From Pseudomonadota bacterium (GTDB taxonomy: Bacteria > Pseudomonadota > Gammaproteobacteria > Xanthomonadales > Rhodanobacteraceae): a stretch of DNA of 64,000 nt. Below the pieces are notes generated by a model, which was given only the letters and a program-made list of their open reading frames with translations, had not been told where the DNA came from and searched no databases. Made by a program: the position numbers and the translations under genes. Within the stretch, counting starts at the first letter, position 1, and every line of letters starts with the position of its first letter. Below, one piece after another: positions 4,201 to 48,223 of the stretch. Location: assembly GCA_021793575.1 (NCBI GenBank), contig JAJYSM010000001.1, positions 3,371 through 67,370 on the forward strand, read 5' to 3'.

Positions 4201-6729
4201 TCAGGCCTCGGCTTTCGCCGCCGCGGTCTTGCCGGTGGCCGCTTTCCGGGTGGCCGTTTTCTTCGTGGCGGTCTTGCGCGCGGCGGTATTCTTGCTGGCC
4301 GCGGTTTTCTTCGGCGCCGCCCGTTTCGCGATGGCCTTGCTGGCCGCGGTCTTGCTGGCGGGCGCCTTCGGCACGGCGGCTTTCTTGACGGTCGCTTTCT
4401 TGCTGGCGGTCTTCTTGCCGAAGCGGCCCTTGCGCACCGGCGCGGCGGCGAGCAGCTCCAGGCACTGCGCCTCGGTCAGCTCCTTCGGCTCCTGCTCTTT
4501 CGGAATGCGCGCGTTCTTCTCGCCGTCGGTGATGTAGGCGCCGTAGCGGCCGTTCAGCACCTGCACGCCGTTGCCGAAGTCGAGGATCAGCCGGTTCGCC
4601 AGCATCTCCAGCTTCTCGGCCACGATCTGCAGCGCGCGCGGCAGATCGATGGTGTACGGGTCGTCCTCGGGCTTGAGCGAGGCATAGGTGCTGCCCTGCT
4701 TCACGAACGGCCCGAAACGGCCGACGCCCACGCTCACCGCGTCGCCGTTTTCCGCCTCCCCCAGCTGGCGCGGCAGCTTGAACAGCTCCAGCGCGTCGGC
4801 CAGGCTGATGGTGTGCATGCTCTGGCCGGTGCGCAGGCTGGCGAACGCGGGCTTGTCCTCGTCCTCCTTGGTGCCGATCTGCGCGAACGGCCCGTAGCGG
4901 CCCAGCCGCACCGATACCGGCTTGCCGGTTTTCGGATCGACGCCCAAATCGCGCGCGCCGGTGGCCTCGTTGCGGTCGACCGACTCGGTCTTCTCGTCCA
5001 CCTGCTGCTTGAACGGCAGCCAGAAGCGCTCCATCAGCGGCACCCACGCCTCCTCGCCGCGGCTGACCGCGTCCAGCTCGTCCTCCATCTTGGCGGTGAA
5101 GTCGTAGTCGACGTAGCGGGTGAAGTGCTGGGTCAAGAACTTGCTGACCGCGCGGCCGACGTCGCTGGGCTTGAAGCGGCGGCTGTCGAGGATCACGTAC
5201 TCGCGGTTCTGCAGCACCTGGATGATGCTGGCGTAGGTGGACGGCCGGCCGATGCCGTGCTCCTCCAGCGCCTTGACCAGGCTCGCCTCGGAATAGCGCG
5301 GCGGCGGCTCGGTGAAATGCTGGTCGGCGGCGATCTCGTGCAGCGGCACCTGCTCGCCTGCCAGCATGCGCGGCAGGCGGCGGCCCTCGTCGTCGTCCTC
5401 GGCCGTTTTCTGATCGCGGCCCTCCTCGTACACGGCGAGGAAGCCCGGATCGACCACGGTGGTGCCGCTGGCGCGGAACGAGGCATCGCCACCGGCCACG
5501 TGCGGCACCGCAAACTCCACCGAGACGGTGTTGAGCGTGGCGTGGATCATCTGGCAGGCTACGGTGCGCTTCCAGATCAGCTCGTACAGCTTGCGCTGGT
5601 CGTCATTGAGAAACGCCGCCACCGCCTTCGGCGTATGCATGGCGGAGGTCGGACGGATCGCCTCATGCGCCTCCTGGGCGTTCTTCGACTTGGTCTTGTA
5701 GACCTGCGCCGCATCTGGAAGCGCCTTGGCGCCGAAGTCGCGCGCGATCAGCTGACGCAGCTCGGCCACCGCATCGTCGCCGAGCATGGTGGAGTCGGTA
5801 CGCATGTAGGTGATCAGGCCGACGTTGCCCTCGTCGCCCAGCGCCACGCCCTCGTACAGGCCCTGCGCCACCTTCATCGTGCGGCTGGTGGTGAAGCCGA
5901 GCTTGCGCGCGGCCTCCTGCTGCAGCGTGGAGGTGGTGAACGGCGCGGCCGGGCGCCGCTTGCGCTCCTTCGAGCTGACGTCACTGACGGTGAGGCGGCC
6001 GCGCGCGGCCTGCTTCAGCGCGTCGCGGGCGGCCATGGCGTCAGCTTCGGCGGTGAGGTCGAACTGTTCGAACTTCTTGCCGTTGAGCTTGGAGAGGCGC
6101 GCCGTGAAATCGCCCTCCGCATGCTGCAGCTGCGCCTCGATGGTCCAGTATTCGCGCGCCTTGAACGCCTCGATCTCCTCCTCACGCTCGACGATCATGC
6201 GCAGCGCCGGCGACTGCACGCGGCCGGCCGACAGCCCGCGCTGCACCTTGCGCCAGAGCACCGGCGAAAGGTTGAAGCCGACCAGGTAATCCAGCGCGCG
6301 GCGCGCCTGCTGCGCGTCGACCAGGTCGTGCGAGAGCTGGCGCGGGTTGGCCACGGCGGCCTTGATCGCCTTCGGGGTGATCTCGGAGAACACCACCCGA
6401 TGCAGCCGCTTGCCTTCGGTAAGACCGCGCTCCTTGAGGATCTCGCTGATATGCCAGCTGATCGCCTCGCCTTCGCGATCCAAGTCGGTTGCCAGATAGA
6501 TGTCGTCGGCCAGCCTGGCCGCCTTGGCGATCGCGTCGACGTGCTTCTCGTTGCGCTCGATCACCTCGTAGGCCATGGTGAAACCGTGCTCGGTATCGAC
6601 CGCGCCCTCTTTCGGCTTCAGGTCACGCACGTGGCCGTAGGAAGCCAGGACATGAAAATCCTTGCCGAGGTATTTGTTGATCGTCTTGGCCTTGGCCGGC
6701 GATTCGACGATGAGCAGGTTTTTTGCCAT
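4201..6729 (-). CDS. topA: DNA topoisomerase I with Lys/Ala-rich C-terminal tail
   Basis: LLIVESPAKAKTI, ATDLDREGEAI, SAGRVQS, ITYMRTDS (catalytic Tyr), QEAHEAIRPT. Confidence 0.98.
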   Translation of the reverse strand: MAKNLLIVESPAKAKTINKYLGKDFHVLASYGHVRDLKPKEGAVDTEHGFTMAYEVIERNEKHVDAIAKAARLADDIYLATDLDREGEAISWHISEILKERGLTEGKRLHRVVFSEITPKAIKAAVANPRQLSHDLVDAQQARRALDYLVGFNLSPVLWRKVQRGLSAGRVQSPALRMIVEREEEIEAFKAREYWTIEAQLQHAEGDFTARLSKLNGKKFEQFDLTAEADAMAARDALKQAARGRLTVSDVSSKERKRRPAAPFTTSTLQQEAARKLGFTTSRTMKVAQGLYEGVALGDEGNVGLITYMRTDSTMLGDDAVAELRQLIARDFGAKALPDAAQVYKTKSKNAQEAHEAIRPTSAMHTPKAVAAFLNDDQRKLYELIWKRTVACQMIHATLNTVSVEFAVPHVAGGDASFRASGTTVVDPGFLAVYEEGRDQKTAEDDDEGRRLPRMLAGEQVPLHEIAADQHFTEPPPRYSEASLVKALEEHGIGRPSTYASIIQVLQNREYVILDSRRFKPSDVGRAVSKFLTQHFTRYVDYDFTAKMEDELDAVSRGEEAWVPLMERFWLPFKQQVDEKTESVDRNEATGARDLGVDPKTGKPVSVRLGRYGPFAQIGTKEDEDKPAFASLRTGQSMHTISLADALELFKLPRQLGEAENGDAVSVGVGRFGPFVKQGSTYASLKPEDDPYTIDLPRALQIVAEKLEMLANRLILDFGNGVQVLNGRYGAYITDGEKNARIPKEQEPKELTEAQCLELLAAAPVRKGRFGKKTASKKATVKKAAVPKAPASKTAASKAIAKRAAPKKTAASKNTAARKTATKKTATRKAATGKTAAAKAEA

Positions 6730-6844
6730 GAATACAGAATTTCCAGTAGCGAACCACCGGCGCTTGCGCCACCGGACATATATATAGTTGAAACCACGTC
6801 GCGCCGGCGGCTGTCAAGCGCGGCAGACCCCGGGCCTGCCGCTT

Positions 6845-8005
6845 TCAGTCCGGCAGGCGCTGGTAGCGATTGCCCGCCAGTCCCTCGACCCGCCCCTCCA
6901 GTTCGAGCATCAGCAGCATCGAGGAGAGCGCCGCGGTCGATTGCCCGCTGCGGCGAACAAGTTCGTCCAACGTCACCGATTCATGGCCTAGATGCGCCAA
7001 TAGCTGCTGATATTCGGGATCACGCTGCCAGCCATGAAGGCTGCCGGAACGCTCCAACTGGGCCGGCTCAGGCGTGGGCATGCTCGCCTTGTCCGCGCCC
7101 TGCGCCTGCAGCCGGGTGGCCAGTTCGCCGCCCAGCATGCGCGCTGCCGGCACCAATGTCTCGATAATCTCGGCCGCGCTTTCCACCAGCCGGGCACCAT
7201 CGCGAATCAGCCGATGGCAGCCGCGGGCCAGCGGATTATGGATGGAACCGGGCAGCGCGAACACCTCACGGCCCTGTTCGGCGGCCAGTCGCGCCGTGAT
7301 CAGCGAGCCGGATTGCAGCCCGGCCTCGATTACCAGGGTGCCCAACGCCAGCCCGGCGATGATCCGGTTGCGGCGGGGAAAATGATCGGCGCGGGCCGCC
7401 GTGCCGGGCGGAAATTCGCTGACCAGCGCGCCGTGCATGGCGATTCGCTCGGCCAGCGCGTGATGCTTGCGCGGGTAGACCCGATCGGCCCCGGTGCCGA
7501 CCACCGCCACCGTCGCCGCACCCGCCTCCAGCGCCGCCACGTGGGCGGCACCGTCGATGCCGTCGGCCATGCCGCTGGTGATGACGAAACCGGCCTGCGC
7601 CAGCGCCCCGGCAAACGCGCCGGCGTGCGCCAGCCCGGCCCCGCTGGCGCTGCGCGCGCCCACGATGGCCACCTGCGGAAGCAGCAGCAGGCTGGCGTCG
7701 CCCAGCACGAACAGGGCCGCCGGCGGCTGCGGGATGTTTTCCAGCTGCGGCGGAAAATCCGCCTCGTTGCATCGCAGCAGCCGATGCTGCGGCTGCGCCA
7801 GCCAGGCCAGGTCGGCGGCCAGCCGGGCGGCATCGGGTTGCTGCAGCCAGCTGCGCGCCGCTTCACCGAGTGCACCAGGCTGACGGCGCAGCTGCGCCAG
7901 CACCGCCTCGATGTCGCCACCGGCCGCATCGAGCCGCTCGCGCAAGCCGCCCGGGCCGAGGCCGGGGGTGCGCAGCGCGATCAGCCACGCGCGCAGTTCA
8001 TCCAT
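6845..8005 (-). CDS. dprA: DNA-processing protein DprA
   Basis: VAIVGARSAS, ITSGMADGID, FPRRNRIIAGL, SGSLITA, FALPGSI; start 8005 or 8014. Confidence 0.95.
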   Translation of the reverse strand: MDELRAWLIALRTPGLGPGGLRERLDAAGGDIEAVLAQLRRQPGALGEAARSWLQQPDAARLAADLAWLAQPQHRLLRCNEADFPPQLENIPQPPAALFVLGDASLLLLPQVAIVGARSASGAGLAHAGAFAGALAQAGFVITSGMADGIDGAAHVAALEAGAATVAVVGTGADRVYPRKHHALAERIAMHGALVSEFPPGTAARADHFPRRNRIIAGLALGTLVIEAGLQSGSLITARLAAEQGREVFALPGSIHNPLARGCHRLIRDGARLVESAAEIIETLVPAARMLGGELATRLQAQGADKASMPTPEPAQLERSGSLHGWQRDPEYQQLLAHLGHESVTLDELVRRSGQSTAALSSMLLMLELEGRVEGLAGNRYQRLPD

Positions 8006-8096
8006 GTTGTTCATGCGCTCAAGTGTACGCAGTATGCCCAAACAGAAACGGCGCGGTGGTGGCCGCGCCGCGCTGTAGGAATCGACCGCCGGAGGA

Positions 8097-9218
8097 TTAC
8101 TCCGGCATGCGCAGCCGGTTGCCGATGTGCACTGGCCGCAGGCTGTCCATCACCAGTCCGTAGCTGACCCGGTCGAAGGTGCGGAAGACCATCACGTGGC
8201 CAACGTATTCGTCCGGCAGCTTGACCCTCTCGCCCACGCTGCGATCCCAGCTGTTGCTGGCCACGTCGTCATGAATGGTTTCGCCGTGCTGGAAGATTGC
8301 GTAGGTCTGACCGTTGTCGACACCATCCCTGGAACCGATCGACAGCGCCACCACCTGGCGCGAGCCGACCGCATCCATCGCATCGACAAAGCCGATCACG
8401 CGGGCATCGTGCGGCACTGACTTGGGCGGATGCGGGTAGTAGTAGGCGTCGTACGGGGTATTGTCGACCGGCATGATGCGGTCGCCGCTGCGGATTTCCT
8501 TGGTGGCATCCAACAGCAGCAAGGTGGCCGGATCGCCCATCCGCAACGTTTCGGCGGTACCGATCACGCTGACCTCCACGCCGAGATCGTCGCCGCGGCC
8601 ATAATGGCCGTCGTTGCGGGAGTTCTCCCGCCACGGCGCGTGCACCATCGCGGCATTGCTGTCCAGGTTGTGGCTGACCAGGTCGGCCTGCTCCGGATCG
8701 TTCTGGTCGAAGCCGCGGAAGATGTGGCTGGGCCGCACAATCGCCCAGCGCTGGCCGGGCTCGCCCTGGAGACCGCGCACATAGATGTTCTGACCGACCG
8801 TGCCGCGCAGGCGGTTCTCTTCCAGGCCCACCACGTACGGCGCCGTGCGCACGGCGTTGGCATCCACCACGCGCAGGTCCTTGAGGAACATCTTCAGTTC
8901 GGACAGCGGAATGGCCGGCACCGCTTCGCCTTCGGCATGCACTCGCGGCTGCAGGGTCAGTTGCGGACCGTGGATGAAGGACAGGTTCAGTACATCGCCG
9001 GGGTAGATCAGATGCGGATTGCGCACCTGCGGATTCGCCTGCCAGATCTCCGGCCATAGCCACGGCTTGGAGAGGAACCTGGCCGAGATGTCCCACAGGG
9101 TGTCACCGCGGCGCACGGTGTAGCTGTCGGGATGATTCGCGCGCAGCTGCGCGCCGGCCGCATAGACAGCAACCGTGACCAGCATGCCGGTCAGCAGAAC
9201 GAGAATTTTTCTGATCAT
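8097..9218 (-). CDS. LysM peptidoglycan-binding domain protein
   Basis: Signal peptide MIRKILVLL..., YTVRRGDTLWDIS...WPEIWQAN...NPHLIYPG; conserved position between dprA and def. Confidence 0.92.
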   Translation of the reverse strand: MIRKILVLLTGMLVTVAVYAAGAQLRANHPDSYTVRRGDTLWDISARFLSKPWLWPEIWQANPQVRNPHLIYPGDVLNLSFIHGPQLTLQPRVHAEGEAVPAIPLSELKMFLKDLRVVDANAVRTAPYVVGLEENRLRGTVGQNIYVRGLQGEPGQRWAIVRPSHIFRGFDQNDPEQADLVSHNLDSNAAMVHAPWRENSRNDGHYGRGDDLGVEVSVIGTAETLRMGDPATLLLLDATKEIRSGDRIMPVDNTPYDAYYYPHPPKSVPHDARVIGFVDAMDAVGSRQVVALSIGSRDGVDNGQTYAIFQHGETIHDDVASNSWDRSVGERVKLPDEYVGHVMVFRTFDRVSYGLVMDSLRPVHIGNRLRMPE

Positions 9219-42383: not shown

Positions 42384-42420
42384 TCACCAACCATGCGGTG
42401 AGAGCGTGCAATCCCAATAT
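42384..42420. repeat. 37-bp direct repeat, copy 1
   Basis: TCACCAACCATGCGGTGAGAGCGTGCAATCCCAATAT; 35/37 identical to 43957-43993. Confidence 0.9.
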
Positions 42421-42631: not shown

Positions 42632-42643
42632 GTGGGCTGTGTG

Positions 42644-43150
42644 ATGAGCAATCTGAAACAGACGAAAACAATGCGTAAGGCGGGCCAGAAGGCCTCGTTT
42701 GCAAAGGCCGATCACTCGGTGGCGAACATGGCGCTCGCACAGTCACGCAAGGGCGTCGAGCGGGTGAAGATCGCCCACCATAGCGGCGTCAACGCCCTGT
42801 TGGCGAAATACGCCGACAAGAGGACGGGGAACGTCGTCGTGGACCGGCTGATTGACGGTACCGGATTCACCAAGAAGAACCTGGCGGGCACGCTTGGCAT
42901 CAGTATGGATGCGATGTACCGCCCGGATCGGGTCAACTCGCCCACCACGCAGGTGCGAATGCGCGAGATGCTTGAAATTCTCGGGCGCATCACCGACTGG
43001 GCGGGGGGCGAAGTGCAGGCGATGGCGTGGTACCGAGGCCAACCGATCCCGGCCTTCGGAGGTCGTACCGCCGAGTCCCTGGTCAAGTCCAATCAAGCGG
43101 GGCCATTGCGCGACTATCTGGACCACATGGCCATGGGTGGCTTTGCTTGA
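42644..43150 (+). CDS. Xre/MbcA/ParS-type antitoxin (DUF2384-like)
   Basis: HTH-like core then WAGGEVQAMAWYRGQPIPAFGGRTAESLV...YLDHMAMGGFA. Confidence 0.85.
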   Translation: MSNLKQTKTMRKAGQKASFAKADHSVANMALAQSRKGVERVKIAHHSGVNALLAKYADKRTGNVVVDRLIDGTGFTKKNLAGTLGISMDAMYRPDRVNSPTTQVRMREMLEILGRITDWAGGEVQAMAWYRGQPIPAFGGRTAESLVKSNQAGPLRDYLDHMAMGGFA

Positions 43151-43677
43151 GGTTTGCGGGAAGGGCCTACCGGGGCCATGACCCGCAGTGGGCGTTCGCA
43201 CCGCTGTCGGGTGATGGGGCAGCGGTCTACGGCGGGCGCTTCAATCCAAAAGGTGTTGCCGCGCTGTACCTCGCGCTGTCCCCGACGGGGGCGATCAACG
43301 AGGTGTGCCAGGGTCTTGCTTCCCGCATTGCCCCGATGACCTTGGTCGAATACGAAGTGGATTGCACTGACATCCACGACTTGACGGACGCCGCGGCTCG
43401 CGCTGCGCTGGGGATTGCGAAATCGGACATGGCCTGCAATTGGGGTGATGAGGCCTTGATCGCTGGCAAGACGCCGGCATCGTGGGCGATCGCAACGAGG
43501 CTCATCGCGGGCGGCGCGGCGGGCATCATCGTGCCGAGCTATGCCCAGGAGGCAGCTGCCGATCACCGGAATCTCGTGCTGTGGAAGCGGGGGAACCGGC
43601 GCCCGCATCGTGTCCGGGCCTACGATCCCACCGGCAAGCTTCCCGCGAACCAACTGTCCTGGCCGAAATCTCGGTAG
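43147..43677 (+). CDS. RES-domain toxin (NAD+ phosphorylase family)
   Basis: TTG overlapping the antitoxin TGA; AYRGH (R), GGRFNPKG, AINE (E), IIVPS (S), NLVLW. Confidence 0.87.
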   Translation: MRFAGRAYRGHDPQWAFAPLSGDGAAVYGGRFNPKGVAALYLALSPTGAINEVCQGLASRIAPMTLVEYEVDCTDIHDLTDAAARAALGIAKSDMACNWGDEALIAGKTPASWAIATRLIAGGAAGIIVPSYAQEAAADHRNLVLWKRGNRRPHRVRAYDPTGKLPANQLSWPKSR

Positions 43678-43956: not shown

Positions 43957-43993
43957 TCACCAACAATGCGGTGATAGCGTGCAATCCCAATAT
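43957..43993. repeat. 37-bp direct repeat, copy 2 (coincides with the 3' end of the hypothetical gene)
   Basis: TCACCAACAATGCGGTGATAGCGTGCAATCCCAATAT. Confidence 0.9.
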
Positions 43994-44331
43994 CGGACGG
44001 AACAGAATTTACCGACGAAATCATAGAGCTTGCCGCGGCATGTTAGTGACGCAACCTCGTCTGGCGTGGCAGGCCGCAAACCGAGAAATTCGTGGAAGGC
44101 GATGTCATCGATGGTCGGACCATCACTAAGTTCGTACAGCTCGTTGTAGAGCGTCGGCACGCCGATTTGTTCGGCCACGAAATACTCGTAGCTATCGCAG
44201 GCTCCGCGGATCAACAACTCCAGCTTTTCACTGCACTCGCCGCGCAACAACAGCCGACCGGGCGTGCTGACGTTGTCGGCATCGCCGTATCGATAGACGA
44301 AAACGCTGTGCCGCTTTTCAGCCTTCGCCAT
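43957..44331 (-). CDS. Hypothetical protein (resembles uncharacterised mobile-element proteins)
   Basis: MAKAEKRHSVFVYRYGDADN...YFVAEQIGVPTLY...DDIAFHEF; start overlaps the end of the upstream gene. Confidence 0.65.
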   Translation of the reverse strand: MAKAEKRHSVFVYRYGDADNVSTPGRLLLRGECSEKLELLIRGACDSYEYFVAEQIGVPTLYNELYELSDGPTIDDIAFHEFLGLRPATPDEVASLTCRGKLYDFVGKFCSVRYWDCTLSPHCW

Positions 44332-44611
44332 CGTCATCTTCCTCATGATCGAAGTCGTCGAGGAAGTAGATGGCGTCGCGAAGCTCGTCCGTCCAAGGCT
44401 TTTTAGTCATCACGTAGCCCATGCGGTTGACGATGTGGAAACCGGGCGGCGCGTACCAGTTGCCGTCCTCGTCGGAGCCGGATTCGATAATGGTCCAGAC
44501 GTGGTTGAGCGGTTGATCCTTGACGTCCTCGAACTCAAACATAACGCCGCTGGCCTTCTGGATCACGCCCCAGTCATCCTAAAACTCGTCTTCGCTGATG
44601 GTGTCATCCAT
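44318..44611 (-). pseudogene. Acidic hypothetical protein with in-frame TAG at codon 11
   Basis: GGAAAAGAG-ATG 44611: MDDTISEDEF*DDWGVIQKASGVMFEFEDVKDQPLNHVWT...; TAG at 44581-44579. Confidence 0.65.
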
Positions 44612-44620
44612 CTCTTTTCC

Positions 44621-46666
44621 TCAGCGTGTGGCGGATGTGTCCAGCGTGGCCGAGCGATGCCGGCCGATAAAGGCAAGATCGGGAACGAACCGTTCGGGCA
44701 ATTCGATCTGCTTGTCTTCGATCGACCAAAACACCTCATGCAGGAACGCATCCTTGCTGGCCTTGAGCCGCGCGGACAGCACGATGCGCCAGTCGTCGCT
44801 GAGGGTGAAAAGGTGGCTGTCGAACGCCTTGTCATGGATGGCGGAGAGGCATAGCCCATTGCTTGGGTTGAGTCGGTTCGCCTTATCGGCACTCCACGGC
44901 ACGATATGGCTGGCGACGAGCAGGCGCGTGTCGGAGACGCCGGAGATGCAGCAGCGATCGCGATAGCTACTCAGCACCGCGCGACGAAAGAAGTTTTGCT
45001 TGATGCGCTGCTGCACGAGCGCTTGGCGCGTTTCGCCGGTGAAGTCGGTTAGCGCGATGCCATCGGTCTTCTCGACGGGCATGTCGTCGTTCAGACCATG
45101 CTCGCGCAGCAAGTATTGGCGGAGTTGCTCGCACTCGACGGCGAGTCGTTCCCAGTCGGCATGGAATTCGTTCCAAATCTCCTCGTCGAGGTGGGAGTGA
45201 TTCGTCAAGCCCACCCTTCCGCTCGCAATGATCGCCGGATCCAGACCTGCGAGGTTTCCGCATTTCCTTGCCACCGCACTGGGCGTTCGACCGATGAGTC
45301 TGGCGAGCTCGATGAGCTTTTTGTTCCGTGAGTGAAGTTGCCCAAATGGCGTCTGGCAATAAAAATGAAACGCGAGCTTGGTCTGCTCCGGTGTCCACAG
45401 TCCGCTGCTCGAAAAAGCGTTGGATGAGACGGTGAGCGTGTCGGTCACGGCAGCTTCCTTGGCAATGAGCTTGGAAGCCACACACTTTGCTACCGCATCG
45501 ATCATCGGCACAACCGCCGCTTCGGCGATGAGCTGGTAAGCCTGCGTATCGCTCACCGGTATCTTGAAGCTGTCCGGCAAGCCCATCAGCCGCGCGCACT
45601 CCCGCGGCGTCAGTCTTCGGGGTCGCTTTCGCGCACCCTGCGATACCAGCACTTCCGAGCCGTCCTTGTAGTAGCGGGCGGACAGCGTGCGGGTGACGCT
45701 GTCGCCGTCGACCAGCCCGAAGCCGAAGCCGTTGCCGGCGGCCTTGTGCTTGGCGGCGTAGGTCTGCAGGTAGGTCCACAGGTTGGCGGTGAGCGTGTAG
45801 CGGGCGTCGATCTTCGCCTTCGGGCCGATGGTGTAGTGCGACTCGGGCAGTTCGCTGCCGTCCTGCGGGTGCAGGATGGATTTCAGGCGCGGGCCGTCCT
45901 TGGGCAGCTGCAGGTCGTCCCACGCGAAATCGGTCGGCTCGCGGAAGCCGACGATGAGGATGCGCTCGCGGTGCTGCGGCACGAAGTGCTGGCCGTCGAT
46001 GACCTTGCAGTGGATGTGATAACCGAGGTCTTTTTCCAGCACCTTCCTGATCACGCGAAAGGTGTTGCCCTTGTCGTGGCTGACCAGGTTCTTCACGTTC
46101 TCCAGCAGGAACGCCGCAGGCCGTTTCGCCTTGATGATGCGCGCCACGTCGAAGAACAGCGTGTCCTGCGTCTCGTCGGCGAAGCCGTGCGCGCGGCCGA
46201 GCGAGTTCTTTTTCGACACGCCGGCAATGCTGAAGGGCTGGCAGGGAAAGCCGGCCAGCAGCACGTCGTGGTCGGGGACGTCACGCTCGTCCACCGTGGT
46301 GATGTCGCCGGCGAACGCGTGGGCGGCGTCGGGGAAGTTGGCCAGATAGGTTTTCTGCGCGTACGGGTTCCATTCGCTGGTGAACACGCAGCGCCCGCCG
46401 TGCGCCTCGAAGCCGATGCGGATGCCGCCGATGCCGGCGAACAGATCGATGAAGGTGAAGGCGGCGGCGCCTTTTCCGGACTGCGGCTCCAGTGGCAGCA
46501 GACGCTGGCGGATGGCGTCGACGTGATAGGCCGGCGGCTCGGTTTCACCCAGCTGCCAGCGCCGCACGGTGCGTGCGTTGACGCCGAGCAGATCGGCGAG
46601 CTCCTTCTGCGTGTAACGACCGTGCAGGCTGGCCAGCAGGTGCCGGATGTCTTCCATGAAGTACAT
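44621..46666 (-). CDS. dcm: Fusion: XRE-HTH + Dcm-like C5-cytosine methyltransferase + HNH endonuclease
   Basis: One open frame: TQKELADLLGVNARTVRRW (HTH); DLFAGIGG, GFPCQPFS, ENV, QHRER, RRLTPRECARLMG (C5 MTase); RCCISG...ASHIVPW...NGLCLSAIHDKAFD (HNH_2). Start 46666 or 46657. Confidence 0.88.
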   Translation of the reverse strand: MYFMEDIRHLLASLHGRYTQKELADLLGVNARTVRRWQLGETEPPAYHVDAIRQRLLPLEPQSGKGAAAFTFIDLFAGIGGIRIGFEAHGGRCVFTSEWNPYAQKTYLANFPDAAHAFAGDITTVDERDVPDHDVLLAGFPCQPFSIAGVSKKNSLGRAHGFADETQDTLFFDVARIIKAKRPAAFLLENVKNLVSHDKGNTFRVIRKVLEKDLGYHIHCKVIDGQHFVPQHRERILIVGFREPTDFAWDDLQLPKDGPRLKSILHPQDGSELPESHYTIGPKAKIDARYTLTANLWTYLQTYAAKHKAAGNGFGFGLVDGDSVTRTLSARYYKDGSEVLVSQGARKRPRRLTPRECARLMGLPDSFKIPVSDTQAYQLIAEAAVVPMIDAVAKCVASKLIAKEAAVTDTLTVSSNAFSSSGLWTPEQTKLAFHFYCQTPFGQLHSRNKKLIELARLIGRTPSAVARKCGNLAGLDPAIIASGRVGLTNHSHLDEEIWNEFHADWERLAVECEQLRQYLLREHGLNDDMPVEKTDGIALTDFTGETRQALVQQRIKQNFFRRAVLSSYRDRCCISGVSDTRLLVASHIVPWSADKANRLNPSNGLCLSAIHDKAFDSHLFTLSDDWRIVLSARLKASKDAFLHEVFWSIEDKQIELPERFVPDLAFIGRHRSATLDTSATR

Positions 46667-46685
46667 TCTCGCTATGGGATAATAT

Positions 46686-46702
46686 GCGGCCAGTCTGTCC
46701 GC
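46686..46702. promoter_or_regulatory. 17-bp near-palindrome upstream of the HTH-MTase (putative autoregulatory site)
   Basis: Minus strand GCGGACAGACTGGCCGC directly before TATTAT (46684-46679), about 20 bp from the ATG. Confidence 0.5.
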
Positions 46703-46790
46703 TTTATTTCCCTTTTTCAAGTGCTCCGACAGATGGCCCGGGGCGGAATCAGCCGACCTGATTGGTGTCGAACCTCAGCACACCACCGAT

Positions 46791-47044: not shown

Positions 47045-48223
47045 TCAAGACCTGGTCTGCAGCTCGGCATCCATCGGCGGCCATGTACCCGCGGTACTGC
47101 GCTGTTGGTACCAACGATGCATCGCGGCGTCATCCACCGCGTATTCGCCGCGGGCGGATTTCCAGACCAGCGAGGGCATGTGCTGGCGCAGGCTTTCGAG
47201 CGCGCTTTGCGCCTGCTGCGCCGTCACCCGTTTGCCGGTTTTGTGGTGGTAGAAGCGTAACGCCTCGGCATCGTAGGGGCGAAAGCGCTGCGACTGTTCC
47301 AGCAACCGCCACAGCACGGCGCGTTCAAGTGGCTTGAGGCCGATGAAGTCGGATTCCATCTGCGCTTCGTCATCGCGCTGCCGCTGGTTGGCGGCCCCGA
47401 GTACCGCCGGTTCAAAGCGTCCGGCCGTGCCGGAGAGTGGACTCAAGGCTTGCCCCAGCGCCTCCATGAAAAACTGTGGCCGCTGGCCGAATTGACGAAA
47501 GGCCTCGGCAAGCATCGGTGCATCGACAGGACGCAGATCCGGCCGCTGTGCTTCGACCAGCCTGGCGATATGGTCGATGAAGTCCTCACCAAGCTCCGGC
47601 ATGCGCTGGATCTGCGAGCCGTAGAACGGCGCACCGTTGGTATGCACCAGGCGCAGCAACTTGTCCCGATCGGAGCCGGACATCACCAGCATCAGGTTGA
47701 CCTTGCCCGGCGCATTGAGCTGGTCGCGCGCGGATTTGAGGGCCGCCATGACCGCTTCACCCGCCTCACTGACCAGCGCGTGCTGCGCTTCGTCAATCAG
47801 CAAGGCCACCGGCACCTTCGCCGCGTCATGCAGGGCGCGCAATGCATCCGGCAGGGTGGTGCCGTCCGCGCGGCCAATCCTGCTGACGTCAATCTTCAGC
47901 GCGCCGGCAACATTGACGCTCTCCAGCCCGGACGCCTTGGCGGCTCTGGCCACCAACCCAAGATGCGGCTGGAGTGCACGGCCCACGGCATCCGCGATGA
48001 GGCTGCCCGGATCACGACGCTGATCGGACCAGAGATCCACATACACCACGATCATCCCCTGACGCTCCAGCTCAGGCTTCAGATCGGATTGCAAAAACGT
48101 GGACTTGCCGGTGCGGCGCGGGGCAGCAAGAAACAAGCCGTTGTGCGCGTCGCCGAAAATATCCTTGCCCTGCAAGGCCCGCGCAAGCTGGCGCGCCAGC
48201 TCAGTCCGAGGGAAATGGAGCAT
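47045..48223 (-). CDS. P-loop ATPase with C-terminal winged-helix-like region
   Basis: LAAPRRTGKST Walker A, LLIDEAQ Walker B, VMSGS, C-terminal AQSALESLR...LVWKSARGEY. Confidence 0.82.
   Translation of the reverse strand: MLHFPRTELARQLARALQGKDIFGDAHNGLFLAAPRRTGKSTFLQSDLKPELERQGMIVVYVDLWSDQRRDPGSLIADAVGRALQPHLGLVARAAKASGLESVNVAGALKIDVSRIGRADGTTLPDALRALHDAAKVPVALLIDEAQHALVSEAGEAVMAALKSARDQLNAPGKVNLMLVMSGSDRDKLLRLVHTNGAPFYGSQIQRMPELGEDFIDHIARLVEAQRPDLRPVDAPMLAEAFRQFGQRPQFFMEALGQALSPLSGTAGRFEPAVLGAANQRQRDDEAQMESDFIGLKPLERAVLWRLLEQSQRFRPYDAEALRFYHHKTGKRVTAQQAQSALESLRQHMPSLVWKSARGEYAVDDAAMHRWYQQRSTAGTWPPMDAELQTRS

Follow-up and report, generated by a model that had tools for sequence, protein, structure and literature searches.

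C5 cytosine methyltransferases (MTases) of the Dcm and EcoRII type are normally encoded in loci of the form dcm-vsr or dcm-vsr-ecoRII, and the free-standing relatives of the gene described here (58-85% identity) are found beside vsr, EcoRII or MvaI/BcnI genes. Genes of restriction-modification (R-M) systems are known to be shuffled and to behave as mobile units, recombining at conserved MTase sequence, replacing their neighbors and showing a patchy distribution. Among enzymes that unite both activities, MmeI and BpuSI (Type IIC/IIG) have N6-adenine MTases of the gamma class and N-terminal PD-(D/E)XK nucleases; a C5 MTase and a nuclease in one chain are, to our knowledge, not among the characterized R-M architectures. 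Such a combination is encoded in the window analyzed here, a stretch of 64,000 nucleotides from a Rhodanobacteraceae genome (Pseudomonadota bacterium, GenBank assembly GCA_021793575.1, contig JAJYSM010000001.1, positions 3,371 to 67,370 of the forward strand; positions below are those of the window), where a helix-turn-helix (HTH), a Dcm-like MTase, a linker and an HNH module form a single open reading frame (ORF). An original prediction had read a codon-usage switch and a degenerate motif X in this gene as traces of one recombination in this genome. Here the codon step and the aberrant motif X are interpreted, with a probability of about 0.7, as the seam of a modular gene with recombining halves. 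The join defines a widespread and apparently undescribed gene family.

The fused gene family and its joint

Among 5.8 billion proteins searched, more than 120 are full-length HTH-MTase-HNH homologs of 62-90% identity; their sources include Rhodanobacteraceae and other Xanthomonadales, as well as Thermomonas, Thiobacillus, Gallionella and Propionivibrio. Motifs were tallied in 24 aligned fused proteins, residues were surveyed in 113 fused homologs, and 80 loci were taken from reference genomes for comparison of fused with free-standing genes; the free-standing Dcm relatives among these loci have 58-72% identity over residues ~28-420. The fused gene is absent from a plasmid collection, despite thousands of dcm matches there. 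Source records label the fused proteins plainly as 'DNA (cytosine-5-)-methyltransferase', and full-text literature searches turned up no description of a Dcm-HNH fusion family; a survey of His-Me finger nucleases lists HNH_2 restriction enzymes, and the passages of it that were retrieved make no mention of a Dcm-HNH architecture.

Fused and free-standing genes differ at motif X: QFGN[SA]V is kept by every free-standing Dcm relative read through this motif, whereas every fused gene read there has a variant. Motif X of the window gene is QAYQLIAEAAVVP (in fuller context ...DTQAYQLIAEAAVVPM, residues 391-406), and residues 184-190 read TQDTLFF in place of TQGTLFF, both as originally noted. In an alignment to M.HhaI, A399-E400-A401 occupy the positions of G303-N304-S305 and D186 that of G98, so that the Gly-Asn of C5 MTases is replaced in the window protein by Ala-Glu-Ala. 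The residue equivalent to Asn304 is Q, D, E, K, H or another in 111 of the 113 fused homologs and Asn in two. Following ...DTQAY, the consensus of the 24 aligned members is QLFAxAAVVPM, and the consensus of the linker is L-F-[AS]-x-[AS]-A-V-V-P-M-I-E-A-V-A-K.

In a maximum likelihood tree built on the MTase core, from motif I to YYKDG, of 31 fused and 66 free-standing genes, the two groups are interleaved, and branches starred as well supported force at least seven changes of state: fused Thermomonas genes group with free-standing Thermomonas dcm (100, starred) and fused Thiobacillus-type genes with free-standing Thiobacillaceae dcm (98, starred). A single fused clade is rejected for the core by the approximately unbiased (AU) test, with a log-likelihood difference of 600 and p 6e-44. 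The tree of the HNH module (~275 residues, compared with 110 free-standing HNH proteins) forces at least eight changes and also rejects a fused clade (AU p 7e-5). Over the 32 residues from motif X on, all fused genes fall on one side of a branch at 100 (starred). Because core and HNH module are polyphyletic and the linker is monophyletic, only the joint of about 30 residues has a single history. Recombination is family-wide, and the mosaic that had been proposed, a dcm-type 5' part with a separately evolving MTase-tail-HNH part, stands by the trees, the AU tests and the same-genus matches described below.

Two simpler histories were weighed against these trees. A single ancient fusion without later recombination, in which a step in G+C content at third codon positions (GC3) came from codon selection or amino acid make-up, would account for a step found across the family and for the monophyly of the linker, but it is contradicted by the AU tests for both core and HNH module, by fused and free-standing genes of the same genus that are 85-87% identical in nucleotides up to motif X with syntenic flanks, and by free-standing dcm genes that encode the same tail residues without a step; it is scarcely credible. 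Many independent fusions of dcm with HNH genes, with convergent linkers, would explain the polyphyly of both flanking modules, but this is highly improbable given that the 32-residue linker block is one clade with a conserved consensus and that the seam is at the same residue in all cases.

In the preferred explanation, a Dcm/EcoRII-type C5 MTase gene of the CCWGG clade, with its own HTH, is joined in frame to a mobile cassette composed of a diverged Dcm C-terminal helix (a motif X' without Gly-Asn plus the linker, ~30 residues), an HNH_2 module of about 275 residues and usually two small genes, orfA and orfB. The monophyly of the linker implies that the join arose once. As the trees, AU tests and allelic pairs show, both flanks have afterwards recombined repeatedly, with free-standing dcm genes on one side and free-standing HNH cassettes on the other, so that the core tracks resident or other dcm lineages and the 3' part keeps the lower GC3 of the cassette. 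Where the cassette entered a dcm-vsr-restriction locus, it took the place of the end of dcm, of vsr and of the restriction gene, whole or in part.

Pairs of reference loci (L-numbers) show such a replacement in two lineages. In Thermomonas, the fused gene of L001 and the free-standing dcm of L011 have 86.7% nucleotide identity from the HTH to the TAC that encodes Y of QAY; beyond this codon they diverge fully, and homology returns at metK. The gene order of L011 is dcm, a 90-residue ORF, vsr and an MvaI/BcnI-family nuclease gene, and L001 contains the fusion and an EcoRII-C fragment. In Thiobacillaceae, the fused gene of L007 is 84-85% identical to the free-standing genes of L041 and L068 up to the same codon, and homology returns 1.2 kb on, within ecoRII near residue 265. 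Since the truncated form of ecoRII cannot be the ancestral one, the change ran from free-standing to fused: dcm lost its tail to the cassette, which also overwrote the small ORF, vsr and the restriction gene's 5' part. In free-standing loci vsr overlaps or abuts the dcm stop codon 49 times and an EcoRII-like gene is found 27 times; in none of 14 fused loci was there a Vsr match, and EcoRII-C fragments are retained in L001, L007, L010 and L082.

Some further features of these loci may be recorded. The ORF of about 90 residues between dcm and vsr (…WFAEM…LLFHPEDDPA…; L041 7217-7498 and L011 7309-7581, 47% identical) has no Pfam or PADLOC match in its L041 copy. In L010 (Aromatoleum toluvorans), tblastn matches the fused gene over residues 50-699 at 6000-8331, and the MTase frame is open for only 296 residues, so that this fusion probably contains a frameshift; behind it come orfB and the longest EcoRII remnant found (residues 168-401). 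A block before the seam, TTC AGG ATT CCG GTG TCG GAT ACG, was considered as a synonymously conserved recombination or homing site, but it seemed conserved only in a hand-picked subset, and the idea was rejected because the normalized entropy of its codons, taken across all 78 genes, is unremarkable (0.74-0.98, compared with a median of 0.87). The recurrence of the same seam in several lineages is only an indirect sign of a possible homing-type mobile element.

Codon composition and the history of the window copy

In 30-codon windows, the GC3 of the window gene is 0.87-1.00 over residues 81-350 and 0.57-0.87 beyond. The best change-point in a two-segment likelihood is between S355 and E356, immediately after YYKDGS (about 45655), with GC3 of 0.93 to the left and 0.74 to the right and a log-likelihood ratio of 20.5 that was matched by none of 500 permutations. 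The switch that had been reported at YYKDG is therefore significant, and the GTA, three CGA and AGA codons follow as described; the value of about 52% G+C given for an HNH line had the right direction but was too low, 300-nucleotide windows being at 0.56-0.62. Compared with an overlap-resolved set of about 1950 gene-like ORFs from the 3.2-Mb host genome (median GC3 0.853), the core ranks in the 97th percentile, the 3' part in the 17th. Host adaptation, as originally proposed, does not simply account for the core, whose GC3 (0.92-0.95; 0.93 left of the change-point) exceeds that of 97% of host genes and that of the free-standing dcm genes of the family (0.72-0.84). The GC3 of the 41 codons after YYKDG, 0.76, is ordinary next to free-standing dcm.

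A significant drop in GC3 was found in 11 of the 12 fused genes examined, with the change-point at YYKDG in the window gene, L081, L001 and L009, at motif X in L082, L006 and L008, and elsewhere in four others. The difference in GC3 between core and tail averages 0.124 in fused genes versus 0.001 in 66 free-standing genes (Mann-Whitney p 1e-5), and the deficit of the 41-codon segment from YYKDG to motif X alone is 0.077 versus 0.011 (p 0.006), with residues that are nearly identical in the two groups. The original prediction had put the seam at YYKDG. By sequence it lies at motif X, just behind ...QAY; YYKDG marks a change of composition in the window gene and three others.

The fusion was found in 4 of 151 surveyed genomes of the host's taxonomic family, free-standing dcm in about 10 and free-standing HNH genes in about 5. 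A free-standing dcm of the same genus has 81.7% nucleotide identity to window positions 45532-46703, in a match that stops one codon past QAY, and same-genus free-standing dcm has GC3 of 0.72-0.77. Another genome of the same genus has an HNH-orfA-orfB unit 72.8% identical to positions 44406-45397. The closest full-length homolog, L081, is from another sample and shares with the window gene both halves (90% amino acid identity), the GC3 step, orfA and orfB; the two are separated by a synonymous divergence (dS) of 0.18 for the core and 0.25 for the HNH domain. The last 178 residues are 97% identical to those of L081, and residues 439-521 are 66% identical to L081 but 92% to L082 and 87% to the free-standing HNH protein P0121. 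Synteny with L082, L089, L090 and L091 is limited to the gene itself and with L081 extends over orfA and orfB. A single dcm match was found in the host genome, with no second dcm or other C5 MTase, which ruled out gene conversion from a second dcm of the same genome.

A single recent recombination in this genome, between a resident, host-adapted dcm and an incoming MTase-tail-HNH gene at YYKDG, would explain why the change-point falls exactly after YYKDGS, why the GC3 of the core is as high as that of the adjoining RND gene (0.94), and why the 6.7 kb around the fusion form an islet of lower GC. It is nevertheless largely refuted and very improbable: L081 has both halves and the step, with a core dS that does not fit a private event; the genome has no second dcm; same-genus dcm is only 81.7% identical in nucleotides and lower in GC3; similarity to free-standing dcm runs past YYKDG to motif X; and a motif X without Gly-Asn is found throughout the family. 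Under the modular reading, the lineage of the window gene would instead have a very GC3-rich tract (residues ~81-354) that meets older sequence of the cassette side at the codons for the conserved YYKDG, as composition and pairwise divergence suggest. Since the GC3 of the core is unusual and that of the 41 codons after YYKDG is ordinary, the simplest account, which we infer, is that a very GC-rich dcm donated a tract of about 0.8 kb by gene conversion, reaching from motif I to the conserved RYYKDG codons, before the window gene split from L081. The patch at residues 439-521, in the N-terminal domain of the HNH module, was probably swapped more recently, judging from its identities.

Several points weigh against a modular gene with recombining halves. 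The compositional change-point at YYKDG is 41 codons upstream of the sequence seam and depends on those few codons, whose GC3 is 0.76; no partner gene fixes the crossover in the window's own lineage; the free-standing sets are the best matches to fused queries and hence unevenly sampled; and the trees were made with a 'quick' search.

Function of the methyltransferase and nuclease domains

Pfam profiles match DNA_methylase at residues 88-412 (1.5e-80) and HNH_2 at residues 590-640 (7.8e-13). The scores of the C5 MTase profiles PF00145 (271.5 bits, cut-off 22) and TIGR00675 (305.8 bits, cut-off 100.65) and of the HNH_2 profile PF13391 (48.5 bits, cut-off 21) are above their cut-offs; that of the Dcm subfamily profile PRK10458, 424 bits, is under its cut-off of 710, short of membership in that subfamily. 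The NCBIfam matches group the 5' part with Dcm. Residues 424-693 span nearly all of a 286-position 'HNH' model of PADLOC (2e-104), and a weak match to NCBIfam NF045808 (52 bits) is confined to the HNH part. The nearest solved structures are enterobacterial Dcm (3lx6/3me5, 7e-102) and M.HhaI for the MTase part, and the EVE-HNH restriction enzyme VcaM4I (6yex, 9.5e-9) and, weakly, TagI for the HNH domain. Profile searches with Pfam and NCBIfam found no SRA, EVE/PUA or sulfur-binding reader domain in the protein, and an AlphaFold2 model of the HNH module, with a mean predicted local distance difference test score (pLDDT) of 69.9 and the HNH part poorly modelled, gave no PDB match at E <= 0.001 in Foldseek.

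Motifs I, IV, VI and VIII are all present in the window protein (FAGIGG, GFPCQPFS, ENVKN and QHRER). Motif I, the Glu of motif II, the Asp of motif III, PCQ, ENV and QxRxR are invariant across the 24 aligned fused proteins, and the nuclease motif ASHIVPW...N...IHDKAFD is kept in 111 of the 113 fused homologs. The ratio of nonsynonymous to synonymous divergence (dN/dS) between fused genes is 0.06-0.16 for the core, 0.03-0.05 for the HNH domain and 0.35-0.43 for the linker; the MTase and HNH domains are both under purifying selection. The invariance of motifs I, IV, VI and VIII and the dN/dS of the core argue for a working MTase domain, where the original prediction had allowed for weak or lost methylation. 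In M.HhaI, Asn304 sits beside the transferable group and lines the path of methyl transfer, and N304A variants still methylate, more slowly; in the Y254S/N304A variant, methyl transfer is 27-fold slower and binding is 4-fold weaker for S-adenosylmethionine (AdoMet) and 60-fold weaker for S-adenosylhomocysteine (PMC3526304). From the invariant motifs, the purifying selection and the activity of N304A variants, the MTase domain would still methylate, probably more slowly. The protein may then be a single-chain modification-plus-nuclease enzyme, in which an AdoMet-binding Dcm domain would methylate CCWGG at a reduced rate and the tethered HNH domain would cut nearby; to this reading slightly less than even odds are given. 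It is weakened by the occurrence of free-standing HNH cassettes in genomes with no dcm match, which implies that the HNH domain is not an ordinary cognate Type II nuclease, and by the fact that the nearest solved relative of the HNH domain belongs to a modification-dependent enzyme.

The main rival on function holds that the MTase is dead or has been repurposed as a base-flipping reader of CCWGG or 5-methyl-CCWGG that aims the HNH domain, in the manner of a Type IV nuclease. It would be in keeping with the family-wide loss of the motif X Asn, the loss of vsr from every fused locus looked at, the absence of any other C5 MTase from the genome, the substitution G186D of a loop glycine that is invariant elsewhere, the occurrence of the same HNH cassette where there is no MTase, and the position of the reader-HNH enzymes VcaM4I and, weakly, TagI as nearest solved HNH_2 relatives. 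The invariant motifs of the MTase, the low dN/dS of the core and the methylation by HhaI N304A variants argue the other way, and the reader alternative is considered unlikely. More tentative than the single-chain enzyme, and doubtful as a whole, is the proposal that the linker-HNH(-orfA-orfB) cassette captures resident modification genes of the EcoRII/MvaI type by recombination at the end of dcm and, through deletion of vsr and the restriction gene, would turn a three-gene locus into a single-chain C5-MTase-nuclease. The cofactor pocket so rebuilt, without the Asn next to the methyl group that is transferred, might have a changed chemistry: methylation could be slower, 5-methylcytosine could be tolerated there, or a different group could be transferred.

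The glycine of TQGTLFF is G in all 113 other fused proteins and in all free-standing ones with the motif read, so that G186D is private to the window copy (1 of 114). It corresponds to G98 of HhaI, which we take to be the hinge glycine of the mobile catalytic loop, and it may weaken this particular copy. Together with a premature TAG in orfA (below), it suggests that this copy may be decaying.

In the host genome, CCWGG has an observed/expected ratio of 0.757, a moderate depletion (rank 76 of 1024 pentamers), and GGWCC is depleted far more (0.47); the pentamer statistics show no excess of CTWGG or CCWAG.

The cassette, its neighbors and known systems

The coordinates of the fused gene and of the small genes of its cassette are collected in Table 1. 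The probable true start of the fusion is M22 at 46657, giving 678 residues, since homologs begin at MED....

Table 1. Features of the HTH-Dcm-linker-HNH fusion and associated small genes (aa, residues)
Feature	Position	Strand	Remarks
HTH-Dcm-linker-HNH fusion ORF	44621..46720	minus	699 codons, one unbroken frame
N-terminal HTH, aa 30-60	46541..46633	minus	weak Pfam HTH matches; free-standing relatives have HTH too
MTase core, motif I to YYKDG, aa 88-354	45659..46459	minus	FAGIGG, PCQ, ENV, QHRER present; GC3 0.93
Codon GAC = D186, TQGTLFF > TQDTLFF, HhaI G98 position	46163..46165	minus	alignment to M.HhaI
YYKDG-to-motif X segment, aa 355-395, SEVLVSQGARKRPRRLTPRECARLMG...VSDTQAY	45536..45658	minus	GC3 0.76; sequence still dcm-like
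Fusion-specific motif X' and linker, aa 396-427, QLIAEAAVVPMIDAVAKCVASKLIAKEAAVTD	45440..45535	minus	A399-E400-A401 in place of G-N-S
N-terminal helical domain of HNH module, aa 428-560	45041..45439	minus	aa 439-521 = mosaic patch
HNH_2 nuclease domain and C-terminal tail, aa 561-699	44624..45040	minus	CCISG...ASHIVPW...NGLCLSAIHDKAFD intact
orfA, ~97 aa, acidic tail	44315..44611	minus	homologs follow free-standing HNH genes (L085, L101, L106)
orfB, 129 aa (...FVAEQIGVPTLY...LSPHCW)	43957..44346	minus	no family match

Free-standing HNH genes gave 4323 matches, the best 120 of which have 64-76% identity, and no MTase is close to them in the contexts inspected. The HNH gene is followed by orfA and/or orfB, or by a fused orfAB, in three of four loci fetched for the top matches and in all five Rhodanobacteraceae cassettes examined except L104; in cassettes orfA encodes about 97 residues with an acidic tail and orfB about 123. 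Neither has matches in Pfam, PADLOC or PHROGs, and an AlphaFold2 model of orfAB (mean pLDDT 79.2) gave no PDB match at E <= 0.001 in Foldseek. In the window, orfA has an in-frame TAG at codon 11 (44579-44581; MDDTISEDEF*DDWGV...) where L081 and free-standing cassettes have Trp, and with a GTG restart that gives 82 residues it may be broken in this genome.

About 20 of the best 120 'free-standing' HNH ORFs have in-frame upstream remnants of motif X' and linker or of the dcm tail (for example MGF..FVIPVSDTRAYQLFAQSPVVPM...), and in P0194 (343 residues) the Dcm HTH (MEDTRTLL...RQRLLPL) is placed directly on the HNH module, the entire MTase core being deleted. Such ORFs and the HTH-HNH join are descendants of fusions that have decayed or undergone deletion. 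Within the linker of the window gene (45446-45460, K421-E422 ... V425), a Shine-Dalgarno-like AAGGAA is located six bases ahead of an in-frame GTG that matches the start position of free-standing HNH genes, and a similar purine-rich stretch precedes an in-frame GTG or ATG in most fused genes examined as DNA. Several 'free-standing' ORFs begin at the Met of VVPM (M406, 45503-45505), and PM is found in 101 of 113 fused proteins. Translation from an internal start might yield a separate HNH protein.

A direct repeat of 37 nucleotides (35 of 37 identical) is found at 42384-42420 and at 43957-43993, the latter copy being the 3' end of orfB, and the two copies flank an Xre/RES toxin-antitoxin pair (42632-43677), which suggests that the cassette's end was the site where the pair was inserted. 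Directly upstream of the fusion is a gene for a 392-residue AAA_22-type ATPase (47045-48223, minus strand), which has no PADLOC match and is not at the homologous position in L082.

Fused genes should not carry a plain Dcm annotation. The family is a natural test of motif X, since it lacks by nature the Asn whose mutation in engineered HhaI serves to widen the cofactor pocket, and an instance of modular gene evolution in which a joint of 30 residues is constant, both of its sides are exchanged, and vsr and the restriction gene are repeatedly overwritten. If the cassette does capture R-M loci in the way proposed, the fusion would belong to a new class of restriction or defence enzymes based on a C5 MTase, and the capture would be a new route by which a nuclease cassette can parasitise R-M loci.

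The fusion joins two known themes, the mosaicism of R-M genes and the single-chain R-M enzyme. It aligns with the Dcm of E. coli and Shigella and the M.EcoRII-type CCWGG MTases (3lx6/3me5, 7e-102) throughout the HTH, motifs I-IX and the target-recognition region; unlike Dcm, its motif X has lost Gly-Asn-Ser and its C-terminal helix runs on into the HNH module, and unlike Dcm loci, the fused loci have no vsr and a restriction gene that is absent or fragmentary. With VcaM4I (EVE-HNH), TagI (SRA-HNH) and ScoMcrA (SBD-HNH) it has in common a C-terminal nuclease of the HNH_2 type preceded by a base-flipping recognition domain, but the upstream domain of the fusion is a complete C5 MTase rather than an SRA, EVE or sulfur-binding domain, and an extra helical domain of about 130 residues, with no structural match, is located between the two. 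Like the single-chain R-M enzymes of Type IIC/IIG, the fusion has MTase and nuclease domains in one polypeptide and no separate restriction gene; unlike them, it places a C5 MTase ahead of a C-terminal HNH domain. In contrast to general R-M shuffling, a linker of about 30 residues is fixed while its flanks exchange with free-standing genes, and vsr and the restriction gene are deleted.

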